Origin: a virus
Lineage: Duplodnaviria > Heunggongvirae > Uroviricota > Caudoviricetes
Reading direction: 5' to 3' (one strand)
Length of the DNA: 38,838 nucleotides
IMG/VR virus record: IMGVR_UViG_2531839130_000015
This document shows positions 7,048-33,670 of the stretch, piece by piece. A program made the position numbers and the translations under genes. The notes beneath the pieces were generated by a model. The model was not told the origin of the DNA. It saw only the letters and a program-made list of their open reading frames with translations, and did not search any database. Positions within the stretch are counted from its first letter, which is position 1, and each line of letters starts with the position of its first letter.

Positions 7048-8238
7048 TTAATTGCTGTTAACCGAGGTGACCAGATTCGCCAGGTATTTATCGGTAATAC
7101 GCTGGCGCAGGGTCAGGTTTTCAAGAGGAGGCACCGGGGTATAGTCGTAGTCGATATACAGTTTTCCGGCCTTGAGGGTTTCCGCATCGTTGGATTCTTC
7201 GCTGAACCAGCATGAGCCATCCACGATATAGCCGTTTGTTTTCAGCTCACGGAATTTGGCATTGATGCCGTCAACGATGTCGCGAATCAGCGTTGCGGTG
7301 ATGGGCTTGTCCACCGCCCACATGTGCGCCTCAGCCATCGTGTCGGCCAGCACCTGCGCGGTGCGTGTGTAGTTTTCAAAGAGAAACAGCGGGTCATCAG
7401 AGCAGGTACGGTTACCCCAGAAGCGGAAACCGTCGCGGCGAATCAGCGTAGTGACGCCTGACTCGTTAAGCAGGTCAGCATCGGTGCCGGACTCCTGCAA
7501 ATCCCAGAATACAGAGGCGCTGATGCCGGTAACACCGTTCACCCCGACGTTGGACAGCGTTTTATGCCAGCCCTGCTCCTGGTCGATTTTAGCGCGCAGA
7601 CCCAGCGCACGGGCGGTGGCATACGCGGTGGCAGTGGTACTGGTGACCGTATCCCATGCGAGGAAATCCGGCCAGATGACCATCAGCTCACGCTGGCTGA
7701 AATTCTGGCGGTAGGCTTTCACCTCGGAAATGGTCTTACAGCCCCATGCGCTGATATATCCGAAAGCGCGCAGCTTCTGACAGACGGATGCCAGTGCAAC
7801 AGCCACCTCTTTGGTGTCCAGCCCCGGCACACCGAGAATACGCGGTTTAACACCGGTTACCGACTCCGCCGCCAGCAGGGCTTTCAGTCCGGTGTACTGA
7901 CCGTTTTCGTCGGTGGTTCCGATGATATTGGAAACAGTCTGCGCGAGTTTCGTTTCTTCGTCTTCGCCGGTGCCGTCTTCCACACGCACGACAACGGTGA
8001 CCGGTTTTGACTGGTCGGCGATGGCCTGCAACGATGCCGCCAGCGTGCCTTTTTTACCGGCCTTTGCAATTGCGCTCTGCACATTGGTAATCAGCACCGG
8101 TTTATTGAGGGGGAAGGTTTCCGCATCCGCATCGCTGGCTGTGCAGACCATGCCGACAATGGCGGTGGATACGGTGGAAATGACGCGGGTGCCGTCGTTA
8201 ATCTCCAGCACCTGCACGCCGTGATGATAGTCACTCAT
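7048..8238 (-). CDS. FI: Contractile tail sheath protein FI (396 aa)
   Basis: Size and synteny with P2 gpFI; MSDYHHGVQVLEINDGTRVIS start. Confidence 0.9.
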   Translation of the reverse strand: MSDYHHGVQVLEINDGTRVISTVSTAIVGMVCTASDADAETFPLNKPVLITNVQSAIAKAGKKGTLAASLQAIADQSKPVTVVVRVEDGTGEDEETKLAQTVSNIIGTTDENGQYTGLKALLAAESVTGVKPRILGVPGLDTKEVAVALASVCQKLRAFGYISAWGCKTISEVKAYRQNFSQRELMVIWPDFLAWDTVTSTTATAYATARALGLRAKIDQEQGWHKTLSNVGVNGVTGISASVFWDLQESGTDADLLNESGVTTLIRRDGFRFWGNRTCSDDPLFLFENYTRTAQVLADTMAEAHMWAVDKPITATLIRDIVDGINAKFRELKTNGYIVDGSCWFSEESNDAETLKAGKLYIDYDYTPVPPLENLTLRQRITDKYLANLVTSVNSN

Positions 8239-8361: not shown

Positions 8362-8661
8362 TGTCCTGATTTGTACTCACTCATTTTCCGCCTGACAATT
8401 TACATAGCCCAAATGCTATCAAATCTGACAGTCTGCTTTGAGCGAGAAACGGACGTTATAGATAGTGTGTTAAGGTTTTCTCTTTAATTGCAATGTCATA
8501 TCCTCAACGACCAAGTAGTGACATTTTTCGTTATTATATGGTATTGTGTTAGAATTAATTTATTGATGCGAAATCATTCAAAGCTTCATTGGTACTTATA
8601 TTTAACTTATAATCTTAATTAAAGAATTTCTTATTTTTAGATATTTTTATGCAAATACTTA

Positions 8662-9414
8662 ATGAAAGGAGGCATAAATTTGGATACTAACAGTCCATTA
8701 ATTGAAGTCGAGCAGAACACTTCAGACATATATATTCCGTTGCAAGCCTGGTTCGAGGGGAGAAAATTCCTTTCACACAGATTTTCGGGCCAAAACTGTA
8801 GTGATAATCCATCAAGTGATTGGGAGGCTTGGTTATCAATACAGGAATGCTGTCCTCTCCATCAGGTCAATAGTCTTAACTGGGTCGGACTGCATGAAGC
8901 CAGGAAAAATACAGATTCATTCTTGGGGAATGTGAAGAGTGAATTTAATGGAAAGCTTCCCATTTTTATTCATGAAAAGGAGAGGGTGATAATCGAAAAA
9001 AAAATCGGCATTCCTCCCAAACCCTCATTACCAATCTATTTAATATCATGCTCTGATATGGATGATACCAATGAACACATTGTTTATGTCGGAAAAACCG
9101 TTAACTCCAAAAGGTTTATTGGCGGTCACTCGGCTGCCTTAAAGTTGCTAGATCCCAAATATAATAATATGAAAAAGAGGATATATAGAGCCACCCCATG
9201 GTTTTATGATGGAAAAGACTATATTTCACTGGATTGGATTAGTCCGACATCATTAGCTATAGAATTACTTGACTTTATAGAGTCTCATCTTATTTACAAT
9301 CTCAAGCCGGAACTCAACACATCGAAGAAAAAAAATGAAGATACACGTTATTCTTTTTATCTTCACATTCAGAACTTTTTATCAACAGGCTTTCTTAATG
9401 ATGAGTTTATTTAA
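8662..9414 (+). CDS. AT-rich cargo protein with a C-terminal GIY-YIG nuclease-like domain and an unknown N-terminal domain (about 244-250 aa)
   Basis: PIYLISCSDMDDTNEHIVYVGKTVNSKRFIGGH fits the GIY...YVG(K/S)(A/T)...R...H pattern of I-TevI/UvrC-type domains, with a downstream IESHLIYN...N segment consistent with the catalytic Glu/Asn. Strong AAGGAGG Shine-Dalgarno at about 8666..8672 suggests the real start may be TTG at about 8680 rather than ATG at 8662. Occupies the P2 Z/fun position. Confidence 0.6.
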   Translation: MKGGINLDTNSPLIEVEQNTSDIYIPLQAWFEGRKFLSHRFSGQNCSDNPSSDWEAWLSIQECCPLHQVNSLNWVGLHEARKNTDSFLGNVKSEFNGKLPIFIHEKERVIIEKKIGIPPKPSLPIYLISCSDMDDTNEHIVYVGKTVNSKRFIGGHSAALKLLDPKYNNMKKRIYRATPWFYDGKDYISLDWISPTSLAIELLDFIESHLIYNLKPELNTSKKKNEDTRYSFYLHIQNFLSTGFLNDEFI

Positions 9415-9440: not shown

Positions 9441-9464
9441 ATTAAACTACGTCCGCTCCTGGCA
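9441..9464. repeat. Palindromic hairpin GTCCGCT-N10-AGCGGAC, copy 1 of a three-member family
   Basis: Read directly from sequence: gtccgctcctggcaagcagcggac. Confidence 0.6.
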
Positions 9465-9484
9465 AGCAGCGGACATTGCTGGCT

Positions 9485-9506
9485 GAGTTGAGGGTCCGCT
9501 GTGAGC
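9485..9506. repeat. Palindromic hairpin TCCGCT-N10-AGCGGA, copy 2
   Basis: Read directly from sequence: tccgctgtgagcgaggagcgga, 20 nt after copy 1. Confidence 0.6.
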
Positions 9507-9789
9507 GAGGAGCGGAAGTTCAAAATTTTTCATAACGACTGATGAGAACAACACTAATTTTCGAACTTACTGGTACAAAAAATTTCCATAATCTTATAAA
9601 AAGTGGGGGAGTCAGTATGGTTCAATATTTGAAATACTACTTGTTTATGTTGAGAAAATTTTAAGCTTGACCTGGTTACCAGATTACAGCCGATCAACAC
9701 CTAGACATCGAAACTTAGAGGTACCTCTGCTTTCAGGCATACTTAGAGGTCTATGTCTAAACCACCCGCTATGCAGGTGGTTGATTTAC

Positions 9790-11325
9790 CTAATTCGGCC
9801 TTGCTTGAATAGCAGACTCTATAGCTGCTCGGAATTCCGGGGCATCAGTTCTTAATCGATAATCATCAAGGGTATTGAATATTTCTAGAAGTTCTCTACG
9901 ATAATGCAGCGGTGCTGAATTACCTTCGCCTCTAGTGGTGAAAATTAATAATGAGTCAGCGACGTCTTTTAATTTTTTATTCCTTTTCAACCTAATATAA
10001 CAAGATACAACTATATCAAGAATATGCTTTCTAGATTTCAAGGTGAGTTTATTATTAGGCATAACCAACTGCAGCATAGCACCAAGTAATTTGGTAGCCT
10101 CTTTTGAAATATAATGAAGATCGAAATTATCTATTTCTTTATTTTCTTGAGGAATCTCCTTTTCATCTATCCATTCGCATTGTTCTGCCCAATCTGTAGC
10201 GACGCTAAATAAATGACAGAGAAGGAAGTGAAAAGGTGTTTCCCATTCACCACTATATTCATCTGATTGCCTATTCATATTCTTTATAATTTTCCTTGCG
10301 AAATATGAATAGTAATGCAACCATAAATGATCCTGAAGACCCTGGTGAATACCTTCATGAACCATAATTTCAAACAGCGTGACACCTGAGTAAATAGGAC
10401 ATTTATATTTTGAAGCATCGTAATAGGAACCTAAAGACTTATTAAGTGCAGCAATAATTTTTTCATCTTCATCTAACCTCCAGTAGAGATAGTCACCGAT
10501 ATCACGGTATATTGCTAAATCAGCTGCAAACTTAGCATTGGAAAAGAAAAAATGTAATATACGGTTGTTTTTTGGAATCAATAAACGATGTCCTCGACTA
10601 ACGTTAAGATTATTTTTAAGCTCAACATATAGACGACTGTTAGGTGAACCAAGTAATGCACTGATAAAATTAGAAGTAAAGTCAGAACGAACTATTGGCT
10701 CGATCTTGATTAACTCAAGGCAGAGGGATGGGTGCGCAAGTGCAAAGTGATTGGTAAGTTCAGGTGATGAGACAATATTTAACAATGCTTCATGTGCATG
10801 TTCAGCAGCTGTCTCGCGATTAGAGATGCGGAGATTGTTAGCTATCTTATCACAAAGTCGATTCTTCACAGGTCTATCAATTATTGATATTAATTTTTCT
10901 AGTTGAGGTGCCAACAATTGTGCCAGATCGTCGTATCGTTTAGTAAGGTGCAAATTTTCCACTAACTCTAGAAATATCCCTGTTCTTCCAATTGAGAGTT
11001 TAGGGTTTTTTAAGCGAAATGAAATGTAAATAGCAACTGCGAGTGATATCAGGTATACGGCACTTGAACTATCTAATCCCCATTTCCAGGGGCCAAAGCT
11101 AAAATATAAGTCTAGTGATTTTAAAGCCGGTGCAAACACCAAATAATTGCTTAGTAAGAATGCAAACCCAACAATTACCCAATCCCACCACGCTAGGCAG
11201 AACCTTAAACGTAGTCGAGCGTTTGGCGTAATAAGGGCCCATACAGCAGCAATAACGCCCAATATGGTAAGTAGACTTGATGTATCAATTTTGGTTGGCG
11301 GTGTCATAATTTCTCTTGTAATCAT
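9790..11325 (-). CDS. AT-rich cargo membrane protein (511 aa): about three N-terminal TM helices plus a large soluble domain with an HExxHxxxxxH motif; function unknown
   Basis: Hydrophobic segments LLTILGVIAAVWALI, WVIVGFAFLLSNYLVFAPAL, AVYLISLAVAIYISF; motif VHEGIHQGLQDH resembles zinc-metallopeptidase HExxH/metzincin spacing; no P2 backbone gene of this kind recalled; convergent with the upstream GIY-YIG gene. Confidence 0.6.
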   Translation of the reverse strand: MITREIMTPPTKIDTSSLLTILGVIAAVWALITPNARLRLRFCLAWWDWVIVGFAFLLSNYLVFAPALKSLDLYFSFGPWKWGLDSSSAVYLISLAVAIYISFRLKNPKLSIGRTGIFLELVENLHLTKRYDDLAQLLAPQLEKLISIIDRPVKNRLCDKIANNLRISNRETAAEHAHEALLNIVSSPELTNHFALAHPSLCLELIKIEPIVRSDFTSNFISALLGSPNSRLYVELKNNLNVSRGHRLLIPKNNRILHFFFSNAKFAADLAIYRDIGDYLYWRLDEDEKIIAALNKSLGSYYDASKYKCPIYSGVTLFEIMVHEGIHQGLQDHLWLHYYSYFARKIIKNMNRQSDEYSGEWETPFHFLLCHLFSVATDWAEQCEWIDEKEIPQENKEIDNFDLHYISKEATKLLGAMLQLVMPNNKLTLKSRKHILDIVVSCYIRLKRNKKLKDVADSLLIFTTRGEGNSAPLHYRRELLEIFNTLDDYRLRTDAPEFRAAIESAIQARPN

Positions 11326-11596
11326 TGTTTGATGTACATCGGAATGGTTTCAAATGATAAGGCTCTGTGTATGATAAATCAGAACGTTATGCACGTTTAA
11401 GAATACCCTCAAAATGGCACATTTTAATCTAAAAATGGCATTAAATGGACACTACTTGTCCACACAAGTTTTTTTCAGTCGGCTTTTCCCGACTAACGTT
11501 TGGGGTGTCCTATTGAAACTACGCTCCTTATAAAAGCAATACTGTAGCTGTATGTTTATCAAAGGGGTTGTGCTAACCAAATTACTGAAGCCTAAG

Positions 11597-11620
11597 GTCC
11601 GCTCTTGGCACAGAGCGGAC
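11597..11620. repeat. Palindromic hairpin GTCCGCTCT-N6-AGAGCGGAC, copy 3
   Basis: gtccgctcttggcacagagcggac between the cargo membrane gene and tail gene G; shares the GTCCGCT/AGCGGAC stem with copies 1 and 2. Confidence 0.6.
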
Positions 11621-11681
11621 TGTCAGATCAGGCTTTACTCTGTGCCATAGATATGTAAGCTCACACCAGAGCTCATACAAC

Positions 11682-12209
11682 TTATTGTGGCATTTTCGGC
11701 CATTCGGGATTTGCAGGATCCACACGGCTGACCAGAACACTGTAGCGTTCCCATGCTTCCAGTCGGCTATGCTCCTCATCTGTTGCCATGTTCAGCCTGA
11801 CAGCGCGCTCCAGTGGCTGAATAACGCTTTCCGCTTCGGAAAGTAACGCGGCCTTTTGTGATTCTGTCTGTTGTTGCTGTTCGTCTGCCGTATAAATCCG
11901 CTTAATCACGGCACCATCCTTAAACATCCATTTACCTGAGTCATCAGCACGTCGGTTGGCGGTAATATCAGGAACCTCGACAACGCTAAAACCTTCAGGG
12001 TTAAGCGTTGAAGCATCTCTGGTGATGCCGACAATTATATTATTCTCGTCGTAAACAATCTTTATCGTGTCTTCCTGAAAATTACTTACTTCCTCATACC
12101 AGTTTTTTCCGTCTTCGGACCATAACCAGATAACATCAAAATTTTTTGTCAGTTGATATTGAGCAACAGTTTTTGGATTACCCGCAGTAATATTTTTTAA
12201 ATGCTGCAT
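11682..12209 (-). CDS. G: Tail fibre assembly chaperone G (175 aa)
   Basis: MQHLKNI...[29 protein letters not shown] matches recalled P2 gpG. Confidence 0.9.
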
Positions 12210-16944: not shown

Positions 16945-17688
16945 ATGGATAAATATCAAATCTGGGAAAATCAAAAAGACACCATCGCCCACCAAGAGTA
17001 TTTAAAAATCTCCGACACCAATTTACTTGGACATATGCATATTGCCAATTACGAAGTTGTCCAACATGAATTAAGCAAATTCAACTCCCCTGACATTGTT
17101 TCCCGTCATTCATTTAACAGAGACAAATTTAAAAAAGAACATTTAAACATATCAAGACACCTTTTCAATTATATATCTTCAGCATTATCATTTAGAGATT
17201 CAACGCGCAACCTACTTAAAACAAAAGCATTAAATATTGCCGACATTAAAATCAAATCAGAGGCATTCATCAATCATGAATTCCGAAATAATCCAGTAAT
17301 AAAATTAATGGAGGATTTAAGAAACATCCTGACGCATCAAAACATGATCGCCCCATCAATATCATCATTCATGCACCTCCAAAGAAATATAAACATGCAC
17401 GGCTTTTCATTTAAGATTGAAAGAATCTTAAACAATGACAGAACCACCAAACAAACAAAAGAATATTTAATCTCACTAAAGCAAAAAAACTTATTCATTT
17501 TACCGATAATAGAAGAATACCAATACACGACTCTTAAGTATCAACACTGGCTTTTAGCAAGTATCTACACTGTTCATCAAGATACTTACCAAGAATACTG
17601 GAATGCGAGAAAAAACATCATGAACGAATGGGGAGGAGACACTCAGCTAATACCTAAAGAGAGTGAGCTCACTTATTTAACCAGATAA
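16945..17688 (+). CDS. AT-rich cargo protein (247 aa), unknown function, with an R-N-x3-H (HEPN-like) motif
   Basis: Clean ORF with AAGGAA Shine-Dalgarno; inserted between V and S and divergent from V; motif LRNILTHQN; no confident family assignment. Confidence 0.55.
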   Translation: MDKYQIWENQKDTIAHQEYLKISDTNLLGHMHIANYEVVQHELSKFNSPDIVSRHSFNRDKFKKEHLNISRHLFNYISSALSFRDSTRNLLKTKALNIADIKIKSEAFINHEFRNNPVIKLMEDLRNILTHQNMIAPSISSFMHLQRNINMHGFSFKIERILNNDRTTKQTKEYLISLKQKNLFILPIIEEYQYTTLKYQHWLLASIYTVHQDTYQEYWNARKNIMNEWGGDTQLIPKESELTYLTR

Positions 17689-17892: not shown

Positions 17893-18345
17893 CTAACGAT
17901 CGAGGTGAGCCAGGATAATCTCTTCAATCATCTGCACATCCTTACCGGTAAAGCCGAGCAAAGGACGCGCCGGATAATCAATTTTCTTACCGTCTTTCCG
18001 GGTTTCTTCCGACAGACCAAACTGATGCACGCTGGCGATTTTCGGTGACTTCCCGCCGTAAAATTCCATTGATGCCTGTTCCGGGCTGGCGCGGATATGC
18101 AAAAAACGACTGGTGATAAGTTTCGCAAACATTTTTCGCTTAACGCGACCGGTCTTTTTTCTGGCGCTCTGCTGCTGGCGTGGCGCGTAGGGTGTGCCGT
18201 CCGGGGCTTTCTGTGCCATCACCCGACGCTGCTGACTCTGACGCAGACGTTTCGCCAGTTCGGCGCTCAGTCGCCGACGCCCTGACGGTGACAGCGATTC
18301 AATCAGCCCGGTCAGCCGGTCTTCAAAACGCTTAAACTCATTCAT
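17893..18345 (-). CDS. S: Tail completion protein S (150 aa)
   Basis: Size and synteny with P2 gpS; start overlaps the stop of the R remnant. Confidence 0.85.
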   Translation of the reverse strand: MNEFKRFEDRLTGLIESLSPSGRRRLSAELAKRLRQSQQRRVMAQKAPDGTPYAPRQQQSARKKTGRVKRKMFAKLITSRFLHIRASPEQASMEFYGGKSPKIASVHQFGLSEETRKDGKKIDYPARPLLGFTGKDVQMIEEIILAHLDR

Positions 18346-18538: not shown

Positions 18539-19288
18539 TCACTGATCTCCTTCGGTCAACGGAGATTGTATTTTCCGCATTGATTCTCCTTTAAGTTCGA
18601 TCTTGATACTGCCATGAACCAGTCGATCTAGGATGGCATCCGCATGTGTGGAGTCTCCGATCATTTTGTACCAGTTTTCCACCGGCAACTGGCTCACTAC
18701 GATGATTGAGCCTCGTTGGTACATCAGATCCACTATTTCCAGCAGGTCGCTACGCTGTTCTGATGAGAGAGGTTCCAGCCCCCAGTCATCCAGAAGCAGC
18801 AGATCGCTATTATTCAGCCTGGTCAAAAGTTTGCTGTATCTTCCATCAGCATGCCCCTGATAGCACTGTTCCATCAGCGCTTTAAGGCGATAATAGTAGA
18901 CCTTGTATCCCTGTCGGCAGGCATTATGACCAAGTGCACATGCCAGGAACGTTTTACCGCTGCCGGTGGCCCCGGTCAGTAAAATATTTTGTTTCAGGGT
19001 TAACCAGTTTCCCTGACTGAGTGAACGGATGAGGGCCCTGTCCAGCCCTCTATTGTTACGATAATCCAGCTTTGATAACTCAGCATTAAGTCTGAACCGT
19101 GCATGTTTGATCAGACGCTCTGCCTTCCTGTTTTCACGGCAGGTTAGTTCTTCTGCTGTCAGTAATGACAGGCGTTCTTCGAAGCCCAGCTCCTGGTATG
19201 TGCCCGGTTGAGCAAGTTGCTTTTTAAGCGCATCACGGAAGCCGGTGAGTTTAAGTGCGGTCAGTTGTTCGTAAAGATGATTCATCAT
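18539..19288 (-). CDS. istB: IS21-family helper ATPase IstB (249 aa)
   Basis: Walker A LLTGATGSGKT and Walker B LLLLDDWG, DnaC-like AAA+ architecture typical of IstB. Confidence 0.85.
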   Translation of the reverse strand: MMNHLYEQLTALKLTGFRDALKKQLAQPGTYQELGFEERLSLLTAEELTCRENRKAERLIKHARFRLNAELSKLDYRNNRGLDRALIRSLSQGNWLTLKQNILLTGATGSGKTFLACALGHNACRQGYKVYYYRLKALMEQCYQGHADGRYSKLLTRLNNSDLLLLDDWGLEPLSSEQRSDLLEIVDLMYQRGSIIVVSQLPVENWYKMIGDSTHADAILDRLVHGSIKIELKGESMRKIQSPLTEGDQ

Positions 19289-19299
19289 TGGATCCCGTA

Positions 19300-20841
19300 T
19301 CAGTGGTAATACTCACTGCCGCGTACGTTTTCGTGTTCCATCGTGGATAACAGATCTGGTTTTGGATCCTGAACAGGTTGTTTATCCAGACCTTTTTCCA
19401 GGATCGATTTAATACCTGACAGACGCCATACCTTTGTTTTCAGAGCTCTTGCACATGCTGCATTAAGTCTGGCTTTACTGTATTTTTTATGAAGGTTCAG
19501 GAGTCCAAGGCAGAAGCGATAGCTTTGTTCCGGATGTGGACGAGAGTTCAGTATATGAAGCACATAACTATGAGTTTCACTGCCTATGTGCCCCGCCCAT
19601 TCCAGAAGACGCTCTGGCGTCCAGGTGGCATGCTGTCGATGAGCTTCAGGCATGTGCTCGTTGCGGGTACTGTAGCCATAAGTACGCTTGCGCGGGTGCA
19701 CAGCAACCTCCTGCCCCTGATTGAAGAGTCTTACCAGTTCTCCGGAGATCCATGCTTCCAGTTGCTGGCCTAACAGCGAACATGGAACCGAGTAGTAATG
19801 TTTGTCGATTTCCACGTGGTAATCGGCATGAACTCTGACTTTCTTCACCAGGGTGTAACTGTAACTGGCTTCAGGAAGAGGCTTCAGTGCGGGTTTATCA
19901 AGCTGGATGAAGAGTTCTGCACGTGAATAACCCAACTTCTGCATTATTTTGTTATTCAGTCTTTCCAGCAACTCCCGAATGCGCTGATTAAGCGATGCAA
20001 GGCTGTAGAAGATCTCATGCCTGATTCGGGCCATGATCCAGCGTTCAACAACCTGAACGCCAACTTCAGCTTTGGCTTTATCTTTCGGTTTACGTGGCCG
20101 CGCAGGCAAAACTGCGACATTATAATGCTCAAGCATCTGCTGGTAGGTAGGGTTAACGTCAGGATCATACTTACATGCCCTGGATGTGGCGCTTTTCAGA
20201 TTGTCCGGAACAACAAGTTCAGGAACGCCACCCAACCACTGGAAGCAGCGAACATGACTCATCACCCAGTCTTCAGGCTGCTGAGACCAGGTGGCCTCTG
20301 CCCATGTGTAACTTGATGCCCCGAGAACAGCTACGATGACCTGAGCAGTTCTTATTTCTCCGGTCTCAGGGTCGGTAACGCCAACGGTAGGTCCACAGTA
20401 ATCAACGAAAAGTTTTTCGCCAGCTTTATGTACCTGACGCATTGATGGTGAAGTGGTTTTGAGCCATTCACGGTACATCCGGCAGTAATGGTTATAGCTG
20501 TAAAAACCGCCTGGATTACGCTCACAGTATTCTTCCCAGAGTAGCTGCAGCGTCACGCATTTATTACGCAGTTCCCGGTGTACTGTAGCCCAGTCAGGCA
20601 GAGAGTGCTTCTTCATCTTAACCTGGGTCTGAAGGAACGCATGTTTTAGTTTTGTATCATCCCATCCTGTAGGTAAGGGCCACTGCTTTATGCCAAGTTG
20701 AGCCGCCCGATTAGCATATCTGGATACAACGGAAGGGGAGATTGCAAGACTACGACCAATTTGTCGATGGCTGAGTCCAACACCGTATTTAAGCCTAAGA
20801 ATTTCTTTAAGTTTTCTCATAGAAATTGGAACTGTTGGCAT
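19300..20841 (-). CDS. istA: IS21-family transposase IstA (513 aa)
   Basis: N-terminal HTH plus integrase-like core, directly upstream of istB in the same orientation; family recognised by recall, specific IS name not assigned. Confidence 0.8.
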   Translation of the reverse strand: MPTVPISMRKLKEILRLKYGVGLSHRQIGRSLAISPSVVSRYANRAAQLGIKQWPLPTGWDDTKLKHAFLQTQVKMKKHSLPDWATVHRELRNKCVTLQLLWEEYCERNPGGFYSYNHYCRMYREWLKTTSPSMRQVHKAGEKLFVDYCGPTVGVTDPETGEIRTAQVIVAVLGASSYTWAEATWSQQPEDWVMSHVRCFQWLGGVPELVVPDNLKSATSRACKYDPDVNPTYQQMLEHYNVAVLPARPRKPKDKAKAEVGVQVVERWIMARIRHEIFYSLASLNQRIRELLERLNNKIMQKLGYSRAELFIQLDKPALKPLPEASYSYTLVKKVRVHADYHVEIDKHYYSVPCSLLGQQLEAWISGELVRLFNQGQEVAVHPRKRTYGYSTRNEHMPEAHRQHATWTPERLLEWAGHIGSETHSYVLHILNSRPHPEQSYRFCLGLLNLHKKYSKARLNAACARALKTKVWRLSGIKSILEKGLDKQPVQDPKPDLLSTMEHENVRGSEYYH

Positions 20842-26852: not shown

Positions 26853-28625
26853 ATGACCATCACCACAGACACCACTCTTTTACACGACCCGCGTCGTCAG
26901 GCGGCGCTGCTGTACTGGCAGGGATTTTCCGTGCCGCAGATTGCCGCCATGTTGCAGATGAAACGCCCGACGGTGCAGAGCTGGAAACAGCGCGACGGCT
27001 GGGACAGCGTTGCCCCCATCAGCCGTGTCGAAATGAGTCTGGAAGCGCGGCTGACCCAGCTCATCATCAAACCGCAGAAAACCGGCGGTGATTTCAAGGA
27101 AATTGACCTGCTCGGACGCCAGATTGAACGACTGGCACGGGTAAACCGCTACAGCCAGACCGGCAACGAGGCAGACCTTAATCCGAACGTCGCTAACCGC
27201 AACAAAGGCGGGCGGCGCAAACCGAAAAAGAATTTTTTCAGTGACGAGGCCATCGAAAAGCTGGAGCAGATTTTCTTTGAGCAGTCTTTCGATTATCAGT
27301 TGCACTGGTATCGCGCCGGGCTTGAGCACCGCATCCGCGATATCCTGAAATCCCGCCAGATTGGCGCGACGTTTTATTTTTCCCGCGAGGCGCTGCTGCG
27401 CGCCCTGAAAACCGGTCATAACCAGATTTTTCTGTCGGCCAGTAAAACGCAGGCGTATGTGTTCCGTGAATACATCATCGCCTTTGCCCGTCTGGTTGAT
27501 GTTGACCTGACCGGTGACCCGATTGTCCTGGGCAATAACGGCGCAAAACTGATTTTTCTCGGCACCAACTCCAACACCGCGCAGAGCCATAACGGCGACC
27601 TGTACGTCGACGAGATTTTCTGGATCCCGAATTTTCAGGTGCTGCGTAAGGTGGCATCAGGTATGGCCTCACAGAGTCACCTGCGATCGACCTATTTCTC
27701 CACCCCGTCCACGCTGGCGCACGACGCCTACCCGTTCTGGTCGGGTGAACTGTTCAACCGGGGACGCGCCAGCGCCGCCGAACGCGTGGAAATCGACGTC
27801 AGTCATAACGCCCTTGCCGGTGGGCTTCTCTGTGCGGACGGCCAGTGGCGGCAGATTGTCACCATTGAGGACGCCCTGAAAGGCGGCTGCACGCTGTTCG
27901 ACATTGAGCAGCTCAAACGCGAAAACAGCGCCGACGATTTTAAAAACCTGTTCATGTGTGAATTTGTTGACGACAAGGCGTCGGTGTTCCCGTTCGAGGA
28001 GCTGCAATGCTGTATGGTCGACACGCTGGAAGAATGGGAAGACTATGCGCCGTTTGCCACCAATCCGTTCGGCTCCCGCCCGGTATGGATTGGTTACGAC
28101 CCGTCACACCGTGGCGACAGCGCCGGATGCGTGGTGCTGGCACCGCCGGTGGTGGCCGGTGGCAAATTCAGAATACTTGAGCGTCACCAGTGGAAAGGCA
28201 TGGACTTTGCCACCCAGGCTGAATCCATCCGCAAACTCACCGAAAAATACAACGTCGAATACATCGGTATTGATGCCACCGGCCTCGGTGTCGGCGTGTT
28301 CCAGCTCGTGCGCTCGTTCTATCCCGCCGCGCGCGACATCCGCTACACGCCGGAAATGAAAACCGCAATGGTGCTCAAGGCAAAAGACGTCATCCGCCGT
28401 GGCTGTCTGGAATATGACGTCAGCGCCACCGACATCACCAGCTCGTTTATGGCTATCCGCAAGACCATGACCAGCAGCGGACGCAGCGCCACCTATGAGG
28501 CCAGCCGCAGCGAGGAAGCCAGCCACGCCGACCTCGCCTGGGCGACCATGCACGCCCTGTTAAATGAGCCACTCACCGCCGGTATCAGCACCCCGCTGAC
28601 ATCCACCATTCTGGAGTTTTACTGA
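26853..28625 (+). CDS. P: Terminase ATPase (large) subunit P (590 aa); track ORF starts 10 codons early
   Basis: MTITTDTTLLHDPRRQAALLYWQGFSVPQIAAMLQ matches recalled P2 gpP. Confidence 0.9.
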   Translation: MTITTDTTLLHDPRRQAALLYWQGFSVPQIAAMLQMKRPTVQSWKQRDGWDSVAPISRVEMSLEARLTQLIIKPQKTGGDFKEIDLLGRQIERLARVNRYSQTGNEADLNPNVANRNKGGRRKPKKNFFSDEAIEKLEQIFFEQSFDYQLHWYRAGLEHRIRDILKSRQIGATFYFSREALLRALKTGHNQIFLSASKTQAYVFREYIIAFARLVDVDLTGDPIVLGNNGAKLIFLGTNSNTAQSHNGDLYVDEIFWIPNFQVLRKVASGMASQSHLRSTYFSTPSTLAHDAYPFWSGELFNRGRASAAERVEIDVSHNALAGGLLCADGQWRQIVTIEDALKGGCTLFDIEQLKRENSADDFKNLFMCEFVDDKASVFPFEELQCCMVDTLEEWEDYAPFATNPFGSRPVWIGYDPSHRGDSAGCVVLAPPVVAGGKFRILERHQWKGMDFATQAESIRKLTEKYNVEYIGIDATGLGVGVFQLVRSFYPAARDIRYTPEMKTAMVLKAKDVIRRGCLEYDVSATDITSSFMAIRKTMTSSGRSATYEASRSEEASHADLAWATMHALLNEPLTAGISTPLTSTILEFY

Positions 28626-29659
28626 TGAGCAAGAAAAAAGGGAAAACACCGCAACCTGCGGCAAAAAAAATGACCGCCAGCGCCCCGAAAATGGAGGCAT
28701 TCACCTTTGGTGAGCCGGTGCCGGTACTCGACCGCCGTGACATTCTGGATTACGTCGAGTGCATCAGTAACGGCAGATGGTATGAGCCACCGGTCAGCTT
28801 TACCGGTCTGGCAAAAAGCCTGCGTGCTGCCGTGCATCACAGCTCACCGATTTACGTCAAACGTAATATTCTGGCCTCAACGTTTATCCCGCACCCGTGG
28901 CTTTCCCAGCAGGATTTCAGCCGTTTTGTGCTGGATTTTCTGGTGTTCGGTAATGCGTTTCTGGAAAAGCGTTACAGCACCACCGGTAAGGTAATCAGAC
29001 TGGAAACCTCACCGGCCAAATATACCCGTCGTGGCGTGGAGGAGGATGTTTACTGGTGGGTGCCGTCCTTCAACGAGCCGACAGCCTTCGCGCCCGGCTC
29101 CGTGTTTCACCTGCTGGAGCCCGATATTAATCAGGAGCTGTACGGCCTGCCGGAATATCTCAGCGCCCTTAACTCTGCCTGGCTGAATGAGTCGGCCACG
29201 CTGTTCCGCCGCAAGTATTACGAAAACGGCGCACATGCCGGATACATCATGTACGTTACCGATGCCGTGCAGGATCGCAACGATATCGAAATGCTTCGCG
29301 AAAACATGGTTAAGTCGAAAGGCCGCAATAACTTTAAAAATCTGTTTCTCTATGCCCCGCAGGGGAAAGCCGACGGCATTAAAATTATCCCCCTCAGTGA
29401 AGTGGCAACGAAGGACGATTTTTTTAATATCAAAAAAGCCAGCGCCGCTGACCTGCTGGACGCGCACCGTATCCCCTTTCAGTTGATGGGCGGCAAGCCG
29501 GAGAACGTCGGGTCACTGGGAGATATTGAGAAAGTGGCAAAGGTCTTTGTCCGCAATGAGCTTATCCCGTTACAGGACAGAATTCGGGAAATAAACGGCT
29601 GGCTCGGTCAGGAGGTCATCCGCTTTAAAAACTACTCACTGGACACTGACAACGGCTGA
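28625..29659 (+). CDS. Q: Portal protein Q (344 aa)
   Basis: Size and synteny with P2 gpQ; start overlaps P stop. Confidence 0.9.
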   Translation: MSKKKGKTPQPAAKKMTASAPKMEAFTFGEPVPVLDRRDILDYVECISNGRWYEPPVSFTGLAKSLRAAVHHSSPIYVKRNILASTFIPHPWLSQQDFSRFVLDFLVFGNAFLEKRYSTTGKVIRLETSPAKYTRRGVEEDVYWWVPSFNEPTAFAPGSVFHLLEPDINQELYGLPEYLSALNSAWLNESATLFRRKYYENGAHAGYIMYVTDAVQDRNDIEMLRENMVKSKGRNNFKNLFLYAPQGKADGIKIIPLSEVATKDDFFNIKKASAADLLDAHRIPFQLMGGKPENVGSLGDIEKVAKVFVRNELIPLQDRIREINGWLGQEVIRFKNYSLDTDNG

Positions 29660-29990: not shown

Positions 29991-31313
29991 TTAGTTTGTT
30001 TTTTTAACTCCACTGTATTCCGCTATCATCCTCTCAACCGCTGGAAGCAACTCAGCAGGAACGCAAATAGACCTATCTGCCTTTCCAACATCTTTTGGCG
30101 TTTTGTAAGTACCATTATAATTAAGGACGCATTCTTTAAGAATTTCAAAAAGAGAAACAATAGGGTCCACGCCATAGCTATCAATAAACTTTCGATAGCT
30201 ATCATTATCAGATAACGATGAAATATCTCCATGAACAAACTTACACCTAAGCTCATAGATTATTCCTATTTTTGAATCAATATCAATAATTTTCGCCGCA
30301 TCTCTGCAAACACCGCCAACAATTGAATTTTTATTACCATTATTGGTTCCATACATAGCATCCAATGCTATAAATTGATTCAAAAACCTTTCACGTTTGT
30401 CATCCCTCCACCCGTGCGCTATAAAGGAAAGAGCAGACAACATCCTTTTATCAGGTGATGAAAGTATTTTTGTAAGTATCGCCAAGGCTGAATCCGTTAT
30501 ATTTAAATTATATACAGACGGAATATTCACCCGAAACTCACTTTCATGATATTTCCCGACACCAAAAGACTCAACTAGATTATTAACAGCAACTCGATTA
30601 ATCGCAAAAGGATTATCAACCGCAAGACATAAAGCTCCAAACAAACTATCAAACATTTTCACCGCTTTATCCTCTGATGAAGCATATGCCACCACCAAGC
30701 AGGATTTTGACTGTCGAAAATATTTCCCAATTGGTTTATGCCGCATATATTCATCATCATAAAAATCAACAGGAACCTTGATGTCAGTTTTGTCTTTAAT
30801 ATCAGAAAGTAATTCCACCCCTAGCCCCGGGCCATATAAAAATAAATTTTCTCTAAGCTCAAGCTTCCCATCAAAGCCAGCACACCCAAGATTATAAATA
30901 TACGGACAGGATTTTATTCGTGAAAGTATATAATACTTAAACATCTCACTAAGATTTTTTCTATGAACTTGCGTTATAATATCATCAACACAAATCTTAT
31001 CAGGATTAAGCGACAGAAAATCAGCATCAATGCGATTGAAGGCTTCAGAACAAAAACCTAACAATAATCTTTTCGCATTGTGAAGGTCACTTATACCTAA
31101 TTGGGGGCCATATGCTTTTAATAACCTACTAGCACATTTTGCAATCTCCTCATCATTATATGCAAGCCAAAAAACAAAATCTTCTAATGCTTTACCGACT
31201 TGAATACAAGGCTGCTCCTTACCATGACTATAAAAAAAACTTTTGCATAATTTGTTTATCATGCCATTAGAGAACGCAACCTTCATAGATACTTCATCCC
31301 TTAACGCACTCAT
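29991..31313 (-). CDS. AT-rich cargo protein (440 aa), unknown function, at the P2 orf91/tin/old position; possible C-terminal HEPN-like R-x4-H motif
   Basis: Clean ORF with AAGGA Shine-Dalgarno about 9 nt upstream; same orientation as gene A, between A and cos; motif ELRCKFVHGD; no Walker or other catalytic motif recognised. Confidence 0.6.
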   Translation of the reverse strand: MSALRDEVSMKVAFSNGMINKLCKSFFYSHGKEQPCIQVGKALEDFVFWLAYNDEEIAKCASRLLKAYGPQLGISDLHNAKRLLLGFCSEAFNRIDADFLSLNPDKICVDDIITQVHRKNLSEMFKYYILSRIKSCPYIYNLGCAGFDGKLELRENLFLYGPGLGVELLSDIKDKTDIKVPVDFYDDEYMRHKPIGKYFRQSKSCLVVAYASSEDKAVKMFDSLFGALCLAVDNPFAINRVAVNNLVESFGVGKYHESEFRVNIPSVYNLNITDSALAILTKILSSPDKRMLSALSFIAHGWRDDKRERFLNQFIALDAMYGTNNGNKNSIVGGVCRDAAKIIDIDSKIGIIYELRCKFVHGDISSLSDNDSYRKFIDSYGVDPIVSLFEILKECVLNYNGTYKTPKDVGKADRSICVPAELLPAVERMIAEYSGVKKTN

Positions 31314-31396: not shown

Positions 31397-33670
31397 TTAA
31401 GAAAACATCACCCAGTCGTCTTTTACAGCATAACTAAACCGCTCACCGTCATAAATTACTGTTGCCCCGCGCGCCAACGCCTCAAGCTCCCATCGCTGCG
31501 GCCTGATACCGTTCTGAGCAAGGTCAACGCGGATACGGGTAATTTGCATTCTTTCCGACCGGGTCAGTCTGGCCGATGGTGCAATTTCATGTGGTTTTAA
31601 CGGGCTTCCGTTTCTTTGCTGACGATTTGGCGTTCTCAGGCCGTGTTTTAATGCGCCCCTGAGCGCCCTAACAACCTCCGGGTCATTCCATTCTATAACC
31701 CCGTCATCAACCAGATTAAGCACTGCTGCAGCGTGCTCAGACGGTGTGGGAGCCTGTAATGAAGTATCACCACCGGTGAGCTTTCCACAGTTATTGACAG
31801 GACTCCGAGGCGCGGCGATGCCGCTTTTTAAAGTCAAAGGCTCAACGACCGGAACTTTCGGAACAATGCGCCAGTCCGTCGTTCTGGTGATATGAATATG
31901 ACGCGCGCCGAGATGCGGCGCGTAAATGCCGACCACTCTCTCGACTTCTTCCTCGTACTCGTTAACTTCATCCGACGGGCTACGGGCAACCCTGACAGTC
32001 TGACAATCGCGCGGGACATTTGCCCCACCCTGCGCGCTGATATACAACGCAAAATCACCACTGTCTGCGGCGGCGCGTGCAGCCTCGACGCGCTCGTCAA
32101 ACTCATCAGCAATGCTGACGCCGCTAGGCAATTTGCGTAGTTCACGGTAAGCCCCCATTGTCGGCAGGCCAACCGTTTTAAATTGTGGGATACGCCACGT
32201 TGACGCCCATGCGGTAACAGCCGCTGCAGTATCTTTCAGCGGCTTGCCGGTATCGTTATCGAGCTGACCATCCAGTGCATAGCCGTCGATGTTTTTTGAA
32301 ATGTATTTCGCGATATACCCCGCAGCACCGCCCCGGTTAAGATGTTTTGCCTGAAAACGGTTTCGCGCAGCTCCTCTTTCGTCGCCATCCTCTTTGAGCG
32401 CGTAGCGACGCATGATTTCAATAATCTGGTTACGCTGGCGTGGATTACAAAAAAGCATCATATGCCAGTGCGGCGTTCCGTCGTGGTGTGGCTCGACGAC
32501 TCGCAAACCGTAGACCTGTAAATCATTATCCTTGAATGCCGTGCGCATCAGGCTCCAGATACGGCAGAGATATCGCTGCGCATCCTTTGGATTAAATGCC
32601 TCATCATTCCAGCCGTGATTAAGCTGGACGGTTTTACTTTCGCCTTTTCCGACCTGACGTGTCGGGTGATACTTTGACGGCGCGGTCAGCGTGATAAACA
32701 TCCCCACATCGCCCTCTGCGGCGGCGTAACGCTCAATACCGGCAATGGTGTTCATCAGCTCCATCCGGCGAATTTCAGGATTAGAAATACTGCCCATCAC
32801 CTTACTGATAAGGTCGATGCGCTCGCCGGTTTCCCTGTTTTCAAGGTCACACGATTTAAGAAATTCCAGATTTGCCTGGCGGCGCGCACGCACATCACGA
32901 ATGGCATGTTTACTGGCATAAGGAGAACGGTCTTTATTCACCTCCCCGACAGCAATCAGTAACGCCTCATGCCAGCGCATACGCTGGCCTTTAAGCTGAC
33001 TAATCCACCACTCATCGTTAAACAGGCGGGCAATGGCAGAATATGCCTGCCTCGTGGTCATCTGTCCTTTACGGTATTTTTTCCAGAAAAGCGGGGAAAT
33101 ATTGAAAGCACGTGCAGCGCCAGCAACATGACCATACAGATGCGCCTGCGCCTCATCTGTAAACAGCGATTCTTTCTCGCCATGTGCATCAACCCAGGCA
33201 TCGCAGAGTTCCTCATACATCATGAAAAGCTGCGATGAAATACGGGCGGCAAACTTTTTCAGCTCCTTGTCATTCATCCCCGGCAGACGCGCATAATGGT
33301 CACGCTCTGCCAGAAACAGCAACGACGCGTCGGTGTTCATTTCATGGCGCTGATTCACGCGCTCAATACGCGGCCATAAACGGCGCTGAAAAGTGGATGT
33401 GAGGAAATAAAACCCGTGTAGCGGGCTTTTATTGCGCCGTATGTAGTCATAACGTGAAGTAAACAGCGAGCGCAAAAAGTAAGGCAGGCGGTTAATCGTG
33501 GATAAAACACCTTGCACCTGACGCATCTCGTCACGTGTAAGGGGTCTTTCGCGCCCGACAGCCTCGCGTGGCGTATTCCATGCATAAGCACCGGTAAACG
33601 CCTTACCGGTGCCTGCGGCAAACGCAGACGGAGGTACGCAGGTGTATTGCTCCTGGAAAGAATGACTCAT
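31397..33670 (-). CDS. A: Replication initiation endonuclease A (757 aa)
   Basis: Sequence matches recalled P2 gpA (rolling-circle initiator, about 761 aa). Confidence 0.9.
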   Translation of the reverse strand: MSHSFQEQYTCVPPSAFAAGTGKAFTGAYAWNTPREAVGRERPLTRDEMRQVQGVLSTINRLPYFLRSLFTSRYDYIRRNKSPLHGFYFLTSTFQRRLWPRIERVNQRHEMNTDASLLFLAERDHYARLPGMNDKELKKFAARISSQLFMMYEELCDAWVDAHGEKESLFTDEAQAHLYGHVAGAARAFNISPLFWKKYRKGQMTTRQAYSAIARLFNDEWWISQLKGQRMRWHEALLIAVGEVNKDRSPYASKHAIRDVRARRQANLEFLKSCDLENRETGERIDLISKVMGSISNPEIRRMELMNTIAGIERYAAAEGDVGMFITLTAPSKYHPTRQVGKGESKTVQLNHGWNDEAFNPKDAQRYLCRIWSLMRTAFKDNDLQVYGLRVVEPHHDGTPHWHMMLFCNPRQRNQIIEIMRRYALKEDGDERGAARNRFQAKHLNRGGAAGYIAKYISKNIDGYALDGQLDNDTGKPLKDTAAAVTAWASTWRIPQFKTVGLPTMGAYRELRKLPSGVSIADEFDERVEAARAAADSGDFALYISAQGGANVPRDCQTVRVARSPSDEVNEYEEEVERVVGIYAPHLGARHIHITRTTDWRIVPKVPVVEPLTLKSGIAAPRSPVNNCGKLTGGDTSLQAPTPSEHAAAVLNLVDDGVIEWNDPEVVRALRGALKHGLRTPNRQQRNGSPLKPHEIAPSARLTRSERMQITRIRVDLAQNGIRPQRWELEALARGATVIYDGERFSYAVKDDWVMFS

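Follow-up and report, generated by a model that had tools for sequence, protein, structure and literature searches.

The low-GC cargo gene on the minus strand between the tail genes FI and G of a P2-like prophage (IMG/VR record IMGVR_UViG_2531839130_000015; the window is the whole 38,838-nucleotide stretch that was analyzed) was found to encode an inner-membrane protein with three N-terminal transmembrane (TM) helices and an all-helical cytoplasmic domain, which lacks zincin features, is under purifying selection, travels as a mobile cassette and resides in a known defense hotspot. The protein belongs to a large unnamed family in which a three-helix membrane module is joined to an α-solenoid, and its members may, as a tentative reading, act as stand-alone anti-phage proteins through exclusion or abortive infection. 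A first-pass annotation, made from the sequence alone, had described it as a membrane-tethered, metzincin-like metallopeptidase effector in a defense-associated locus; the membrane anchor and the defense-hotspot residence stood, while the proteolytic activity did not.

Architecture and Fold of the Protein

The 511-amino-acid (aa) open reading frame (ORF) of the first-pass annotation (9790..11325, minus strand) is present in the ORF list, although translation probably starts at its seventh codon (Met7, position 11307) and not at Met1, since the Prokaryotic Genome Annotation Pipeline gives a 505-aa product in all four genomes checked, homologue N-termini start with MTPPTK, matching Met7, and a Shine-Dalgarno-like AAGAGA lies 4–5 nt upstream of Met7, with no comparable element upstream of Met1. 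Residues are numbered here from Met7, and addition of 6 gives the 511-aa numbering. The three predicted N-terminal TM helices were recovered as hydrophobic helices in the first ~100 residues, both as Kyte-Doolittle peaks and in an AlphaFold2 model, and the soluble domain of about 400 aa placed after them proved to span ~405 aa (residues 101-505; Table 1). Within the membrane module, TM1 (residues 10-25), which ranks second in conservation among the segments of the family, is followed by an Arg-rich cytoplasmic loop, TM2 (40-57), a conserved aromatic periplasmic loop (GPWKWG, W74) and TM3 (80-100). Two alignments were used throughout, one of 101 close relatives (41-90% identity) and the other of 79 divergent members, which share 20-42% identity with the query. 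Across both, the net charge is +2.5 to +2.8 in the loop that follows TM1 and +4.0 to +4.3 past TM3, with the N-tail and the TM2-TM3 loop being neutral or negative; by the positive-inside rule, this distribution gives an N-out/C-in topology, and hence a cytoplasmic location of the 405-aa domain.

The AlphaFold2 model, built from the 101-sequence alignment, was confident (mean predicted local distance difference test 84.7; predicted template modeling score 0.79) and contains helices only, about 25 of them past the TM region, with no β-strand. In the model, the helices stack as antiparallel pairs into a superhelix of the HEAT/ARM α-solenoid type. The most variable parts of the domain across the family are an insert at residues ~145-190 and the C-terminal ~100 residues. 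Resemblance to known HEAT/ARM scaffolds is limited to this general architecture (5-12% identity, poor Foldseek TM-scores of 0.1-0.3), and those families, unlike the protein studied here, are not fused to a conserved three-helix membrane module. Foldseek searches against the PDB and against viral models gave no match at E ≤ 0.001; a few M1 aminopeptidases, enzymes that bear a C-terminal helical-repeat domain, were among the matches, but at E ~0.1 and a TM-score of ~0.15 these were not significant. A PDB profile search returned no relative and no peptidase, Pfam (its repeat models included) and NCBIfam gave no match for the query, and only the uncharacterized phrog_13820 matched it. Among the 79 divergent members, the sole match to a repeat model was one to PPR (E 0.057).

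The HExxH Motif and the Peptidase Hypothesis

The motif VHEGIHQGLQDH named in the first-pass annotation is present (HEGIHQGLQDH, residues 317-327, or 323-333 in the 511-aa numbering) and lies in the model at the C-terminal end of helix 304-321 and in the loop that follows. From the protein composition, 0.0009 occurrences of the extended HExxHxxxxxH pattern and 0.029 of plain HExxH would be expected by chance; plain HExxH, however, was seen twice in the stop-to-stop frames of at least 150 aa of the whole window (14.6k residues), so that only the extended motif is unusual. The metzincin-like spacing was likewise borne out in part, the third His being at +10 but the Gly at +6, where the canonical position is +7 (HExxHxGxxDH versus HExxHxxGxxH).

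That the protein is a membrane-tethered, metzincin-like zinc metallopeptidase, with H317, H321 and H327 as ligands and E318 as the catalytic residue, cleaving a host or phage protein in the course of abortive infection, is now highly improbable. The extended motif with its third His is real, H317, E318, H321, D326 and H327 are each kept in 98-101 of the 101 close relatives, and the predicted local geometry, in which HExxH ends a helix and leads through a Gly-containing turn to the third His, would resemble that of metzincins such as astacin and serralysin. Zincin catalytic domains, however, consist of a β-sheet packed against the active-site helix, and when the fold was inspected for a zincin-like site, the check that the annotation itself had named, the model was all-helical and Foldseek gave no significant match. 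No peptidase model matched any of the 79 divergent relatives at E ≤ 0.1. A precedent in concept for a defense metallopeptidase is provided by Lit (Peptidase_U49), the abortive-infection metalloprotease of the e14 prophage, which is likewise a prophage-borne single gene with HExxH; Lit nevertheless shares no sequence similarity with the protein and differs from it in size and architecture, and neither PF10463 nor the PADLOC Lit model gave a match at E ≤ 1.

Conservation of the putative ligands did not extend to the whole family. Among the 79 divergent members, H317 is kept in only five (replaced by Ser, Thr or Leu), E318 in 44 (Ala, Ser or Arg), H321 in 35 (Tyr or Phe) and D326 in 16 (Trp in 56), while H327 is kept in 76 with no common replacement. 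Of 258 aligned sequences, 123 have HExxH at this position, and nearly all of the 123 belong to the close subclade. Across the whole set, the residues of the site change together between the forms H-E-H-D-H and S/T/L-E-H/Y/F-W-H, with H317 paired with D326 in 120/125 cases and a residue other than His at 317 paired with W326 in 103/133. Even within the query's own branch, HQGIH, YEGIH and NEGIH variants occur, and the HQGIH allele (P0026) represents 168 member sequences, on E. coli phage-plasmids. Because zincins are classically inactivated by a Glu-to-Gln substitution, the maintenance of HQGIH makes a protease center very unlikely; such natural E-to-Q and H-to-Y/N variants, together with the missing β-sheet, the absent zincin match, the displaced Gly and the loss of the ligand His from most of the family, set the protein apart from metzincins. 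On the basis of the fold, the family-wide conservation and the lack of any peptidase match, the zincin/metzincin peptidase was therefore rejected, and the earlier claim is regarded as largely refuted in silico.

As judged from the alignments, the HEHDH polar cluster of this subclade appears to take the place of a buried, Trp-centered packing found in other family members, and could at most form a local, perhaps structural, metal site. The surrounding block (residues 312-332) is conserved family-wide, the lowest-entropy 20-residue window of the family being 311-330, and its conservation is carried by F312, M315, H327, W329, L330 and Y332. Polar residues conserved across the family are S224, E229 (100%), N233, N248, N289, H327, E354 and D481. 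The natural split between HEHDH-type and Trp-type sequences offers a ready-made test of the role of the block, and the case cautions more generally that an HExxH motif well conserved in close homologues can disappear once a whole family is sampled.

A Mobile Single-Gene Cassette in P2 Hotspot #2

A word-indexed search gave 161 relatives, all hypothetical and without Pfam domains, and an exhaustive profile search extended these to 831 clusters (50% identity), nearly all of 520-560 aa and of the same architecture, which span the Gamma- and Betaproteobacteria on prophages, phage-plasmids, integrative and conjugative elements (ICEs) and islands. The 90% protein cluster covers seven enterobacterial genera, and the gene was found in 81 of 5,426 complete E. 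coli genomes (1.5%). A literature search by accession found no publication on the family, and the accessions were absent from the DefensePredictor supplements. Comparison with a 93.6% identical allele gave a ratio of nonsynonymous to synonymous substitution (dN/dS) of 0.16, indicative of purifying selection.

The gene lies in a 36% GC island inside the ~56% GC prophage, bounded by the tail sheath gene FI and the tail fiber assembly gene G (as identified by Pfam), where it replaces the Z/fun genes that occupy the same slot in reference P2. The Z/fun cargo is also of low GC and is bracketed by the same type-A and type-B hairpins (see below) but encodes an unrelated protein. This FI-G slot (P2 hotspot #2, the fun locus) holds three validated phage defense (PD) systems (Vassallo et al. 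2022) in addition to fun, and differs from the gpA-gpQ hotspot described by Rousset et al. (PMC9122126).

A 2.1-kb module containing the gene is 99% identical in CP4-57-type chromosomal islands, where it sits between YfjJ-like and YfjP-like genes, in the slot that holds abpAB and rnlAB in K-12. The gene is thus a self-contained, mobile single-gene cassette that moves among prophage and island cargo slots. AbpA (YfjL) and YfjW, which are cargo proteins of CP4-57 in K-12, showed no homology to the protein.

Homologues elsewhere lie beside a Lamassu-like operon (DUF3800, LmuB_C, MC3, CTD7) in a Delftia ICE, putAbiC in Yersinia enterocolitica, an 877-aa Mrr + STAND protein in an E. coli a15 island (next to the 93.6% allele), an AAA_21 ATPase and a Lit-type Peptidase_U49 in a Pseudomonas ICE (the latter ~2.6 kb from the homologue), an AAA_15 ATPase in a Pandoraea integrase/Prim-Pol element, and HNH and Vsr genes in a P. 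aeruginosa integrase island. In SSU5-like phage-plasmids the homologue is a lone opposite-strand gene, with two alleles in one slot, and in lambdoid prophages it occupies accessory slots. Across nine homologue neighborhoods, no conserved partner gene was found. The 877-aa gene, annotated as a 'restriction endonuclease' (locus L013, 4752-7385), joins an Mrr_cat nuclease to an nSTAND1 NTPase in an Avs-like architecture, has no PADLOC match, and shares its hairpin-bracketed stretch with the 93.6% allele.

Boundary Hairpins and Cassette Exchange

Each gene of the island is bracketed separately by hairpin repeats with the stem GTCCGCT/AGCGGAC and a 10-nt loop, which is nTGAGCGAGnA in type A and roughly its reverse complement in type B. 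A pattern search for the hairpin gave 5 matches versus 1.3 expected, and three of the four hairpins, as well as the junction formed by a type-B copy, 19 nt and a type-A copy (-22.7 kcal/mol, z -4.9), form much more stable folds than shuffled sequences do; the boundary hairpins are without T-runs. In a boundary alignment with a chromosomal island (L001), identity starts at the 9494 hairpin and stops at the 11593 hairpin, and the latter also forms the right arm of a 36-nt inverted repeat bracketing the whole island. The same A-cargo-B arrangement surrounds Z/fun in P2 and ORF1 in P2-EC58 (left and right inverted repeats in GenBank) and recurs in tandem units of CP4-57-type islands and in Y. enterocolitica, where a 17.6-kb stretch contains at least 12 of the hairpins. 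Outside the window, hairpins were located at L001, L002, L013, L014, L015/L016, L028, L029 and L044. Of 5,426 E. coli genomes, 719 had the junction, at no more than 1-3 places each, and a ubiquitous repeat of the REP/ERIC type was therefore rejected.

A possible role of the hairpins is that of a cassette-exchange mechanism for hotspot cargo. Site-specific recombination at this locus was reportedly proposed by Nilsson et al. in 2004 (cited in PMC3448106). How P2 hotspots swap their cargo is listed as unsolved in recent work on P2/P4 defense turnover (bioRxiv 10.64898/2026.02.27.708500), and the hairpin-bounded cassettes provide a concrete handle on this question.

Possible Functions of the Family

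If the family is one of stand-alone anti-phage proteins, the helical-repeat domain may bind or sense some component of the phage or of the host, because its fold is typical of binding platforms and it carries a variable insert and a variable C-terminal third. The conserved three-helix module would then be the site of action, leading either to abortive infection through disturbance of the inner membrane or to exclusion through a block on passage across that membrane. Defenses based on TM effectors or exclusion (RexB, Kiwa KwaA, the retron, CBASS, Thoeris and Rst effectors, and Imm/Sie-type proteins) are likewise located in the inner membrane, carried by prophages or islands, and found in the same hotspots. 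Those TM effectors, however, are usually small or work with a separate sensor, whereas the present protein has a fused 400-aa cytoplasmic domain and no conserved partner gene, and it has no homology to them, as judged by the empty PADLOC result. Rousset et al. (PMC9122126) note that TM proteins of systems of this kind are considered to be suicide effectors. Should phage protection be demonstrated, the family would add a single-gene system of wide occurrence, whose architecture current defense catalogues lack. A more far-reaching version, in which the protein founds a new family of one-protein immune systems (a solenoid sensor fused to a three-TM effector) spread by a transposase-less, integron-like cassette network, is unlikely; such a network would move one- or two-gene A/B-hairpin units between P2 hotspot #2, CP4-57-type islands and the Yersinia chromosomal array.

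Several observations weigh against an anti-phage function. The defense role would be assigned through guilt by association, pore formation by the TM module and ligand binding by the solenoid are proposals, and PADLOC-DB v2.0.0 gave 0 families at E ≤ 1 for the protein. The sigma-70-like site upstream of the gene is weak, and promoter-like sites are not enriched over shuffled sequences. In metagenomic contigs (P0108) the homologue is flanked by housekeeping genes only, with no mobile-element or defense neighbors, and the eight polar residues conserved across the family could instead mark an enzyme active site. Frameshifted alleles occur in several E. coli genomes, showing that the gene is dispensable. 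In E. coli NCTC9022 (L002, 8310-9826) and about 8 other genomes, a 1-nt deletion yields two annotated coding sequences (331 + 175 aa) in copies that are otherwise 99% identical; this pseudogenization, whether recurrent or clonal, is consistent with a dispensable, possibly costly accessory gene.

Some of these points would equally suit a non-defense accessory membrane protein, concerned with lysogenic conversion, envelope or fitness functions, or rivalry among mobile elements (plasmid or conjugation exclusion, for example), that simply occupies the same slots as defense genes. Such a role, here considered somewhat unlikely, would explain the homologue amid housekeeping genes and the lack of a match to any known defense model in PADLOC, and it has parallels in the Yersinia hairpin array, which also brackets LysE, acetyltransferase and AraC/MFS genes, and in P2 cargo slots, which, according to Rousset et al. 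(PMC9122126), also hold partitioning systems and cytolethal distending toxin. Against it, the gene repeatedly adjoins defense-type genes in unrelated elements and taxa, its slot houses three validated systems as well as fun, and its patchy distribution (1.5% of E. coli), cross-genus near-identity and occasional pseudogenization are typical of defense cargo. All-α enzymes exist, and a new membrane-anchored one, acting on a small molecule, lipid or nucleic acid in the cytoplasm or close to the membrane through E229, H327, E354, D481, Asn233/248/289 and S224, was also considered and is decidedly unlikely. Conservation of the kind typical of active or ligand sites speaks for it, as E229 is invariant, 91% or more of the 79 divergent sequences retain H327, E354 and D481, and H327 falls within the best-conserved block of the family.

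Table 1. Coordinates of the features described in the window.
Feature	Position	Strand	Details
Coding sequence	9790..11307	-	505 aa from Met7; stop codon 9790-9792; upstream ATG at 11325 extends ORF to 511 aa
Membrane module, residues 10-100	11008..11280	-	Translation, hydropathy, AlphaFold2 helices, charge counts
Cytoplasmic all-α helical-repeat (solenoid) domain, residues 101-505	9793..11007	-	
Family-wide conserved block, residues 312-332	10312..10374	-	Consensus FFDIMVxEALxQxIxWHMWLYY; alignment consensus, column counts
HEGIHQGLQDH motif	10327..10359	-	Translation
5′ non-coding region	11308..11592	-	Travels with cassette; no Rfam match; ORFs wholly inside ≤42 aa
Sigma-70-like site, weak	11353 to 11324		
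2.1-kb module shared with CP4-57-type islands	9493-11627		
Hairpin copies	8423-8458, 9449-9474, 9494-9519, 11593-11628		Copies at 8431, 9451, 9494, 11597
Type-A boundary hairpin, 3′ cassette end	9494..9519	.	GTCCGCT-N10-AGCGGAA; DNA fold -5.3 kcal/mol, z -2.5
Type-B boundary hairpin, 5′ cassette end	11593..11628	.	GTCCGCT-N10-AGCGGAC; DNA fold -9.8 kcal/mol, z -4.3
Tail sheath gene FI	7048..8238		
Tail fiber assembly gene G	11682..12209		
250-aa ORF	8662-9414	+	
16-nt element	8512-8527, 11443-11458		
Promoter-like site	8518-8547		
247-aa ORF	16945-17688	+	
Phage_tail_S	17893-18345		
IS21-family element	18539-20841	-	
Portal gene Q	28625-29659		
440-aa ORF	29991-31313	-	
Replication gene A	31397-33670		

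Neighboring Gene and Other Features of the Window

The convergent 250-aa ORF that shares the island was present in only 6 of the 5,426 E. coli genomes, compared with 81 for the target gene, so that the two do not form a system; the genes also have separate hairpin pairs, the target travels alone, and a two-gene system was rejected. The 250-aa product gave sub-threshold GIY-YIG matches (PF01541, E 0.033; PF20815, E 0.094) over IYLI...VYVGKT, matched the uncharacterized phrog_16890 and had no PADLOC match. Judging by these similarities, it may be a small GIY-YIG nuclease and, as such, a defense candidate. Homology to the P2 Z/fun slot product was also considered and dropped, since the 250-aa product does not resemble the 233-aa protein encoded by the larger P2 gene of that slot. 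A search of the island for structured RNA gave only sub-threshold noise. Both convergent cargo genes have a 16-nt element (CAAGTAGTGACATTTT / CAAGTAGTGTCCATTT) upstream, oriented alike with respect to each gene, and its left copy overlaps a promoter-like site; the element may serve the two genes as a common promoter or operator and move along with the cassettes.

Two further low-GC insertions and a transposable element were observed elsewhere in the prophage. The 440-aa ORF forms a second low-GC island (36%) between the portal gene Q and the replication gene A, the slot that is the old/tin defense hotspot #1 of P2-like phages, and represents uncharacterized cargo for which neither Pfam nor PADLOC gave a match. 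The 247-aa ORF occupies a third patch of low GC (~36%). It lies on the strand opposite to the flanking tail and virion-morphogenesis genes, among them Phage_tail_S, has no Pfam or PADLOC match, and resembles a moron-like insertion. The IS21-family element among the late genes encodes an IstB-like ATPase (249 aa) and an IstA-like transposase (513 aa, with rve and Mu-transposase C-terminal domains), and the prophage may have been disrupted by its insertion. A PADLOC match of the IstB protein to DrmD probably reflects shared IstB-like ATPase similarity, the Pfam IstB_IS21 match having an E-value of 2e-67.
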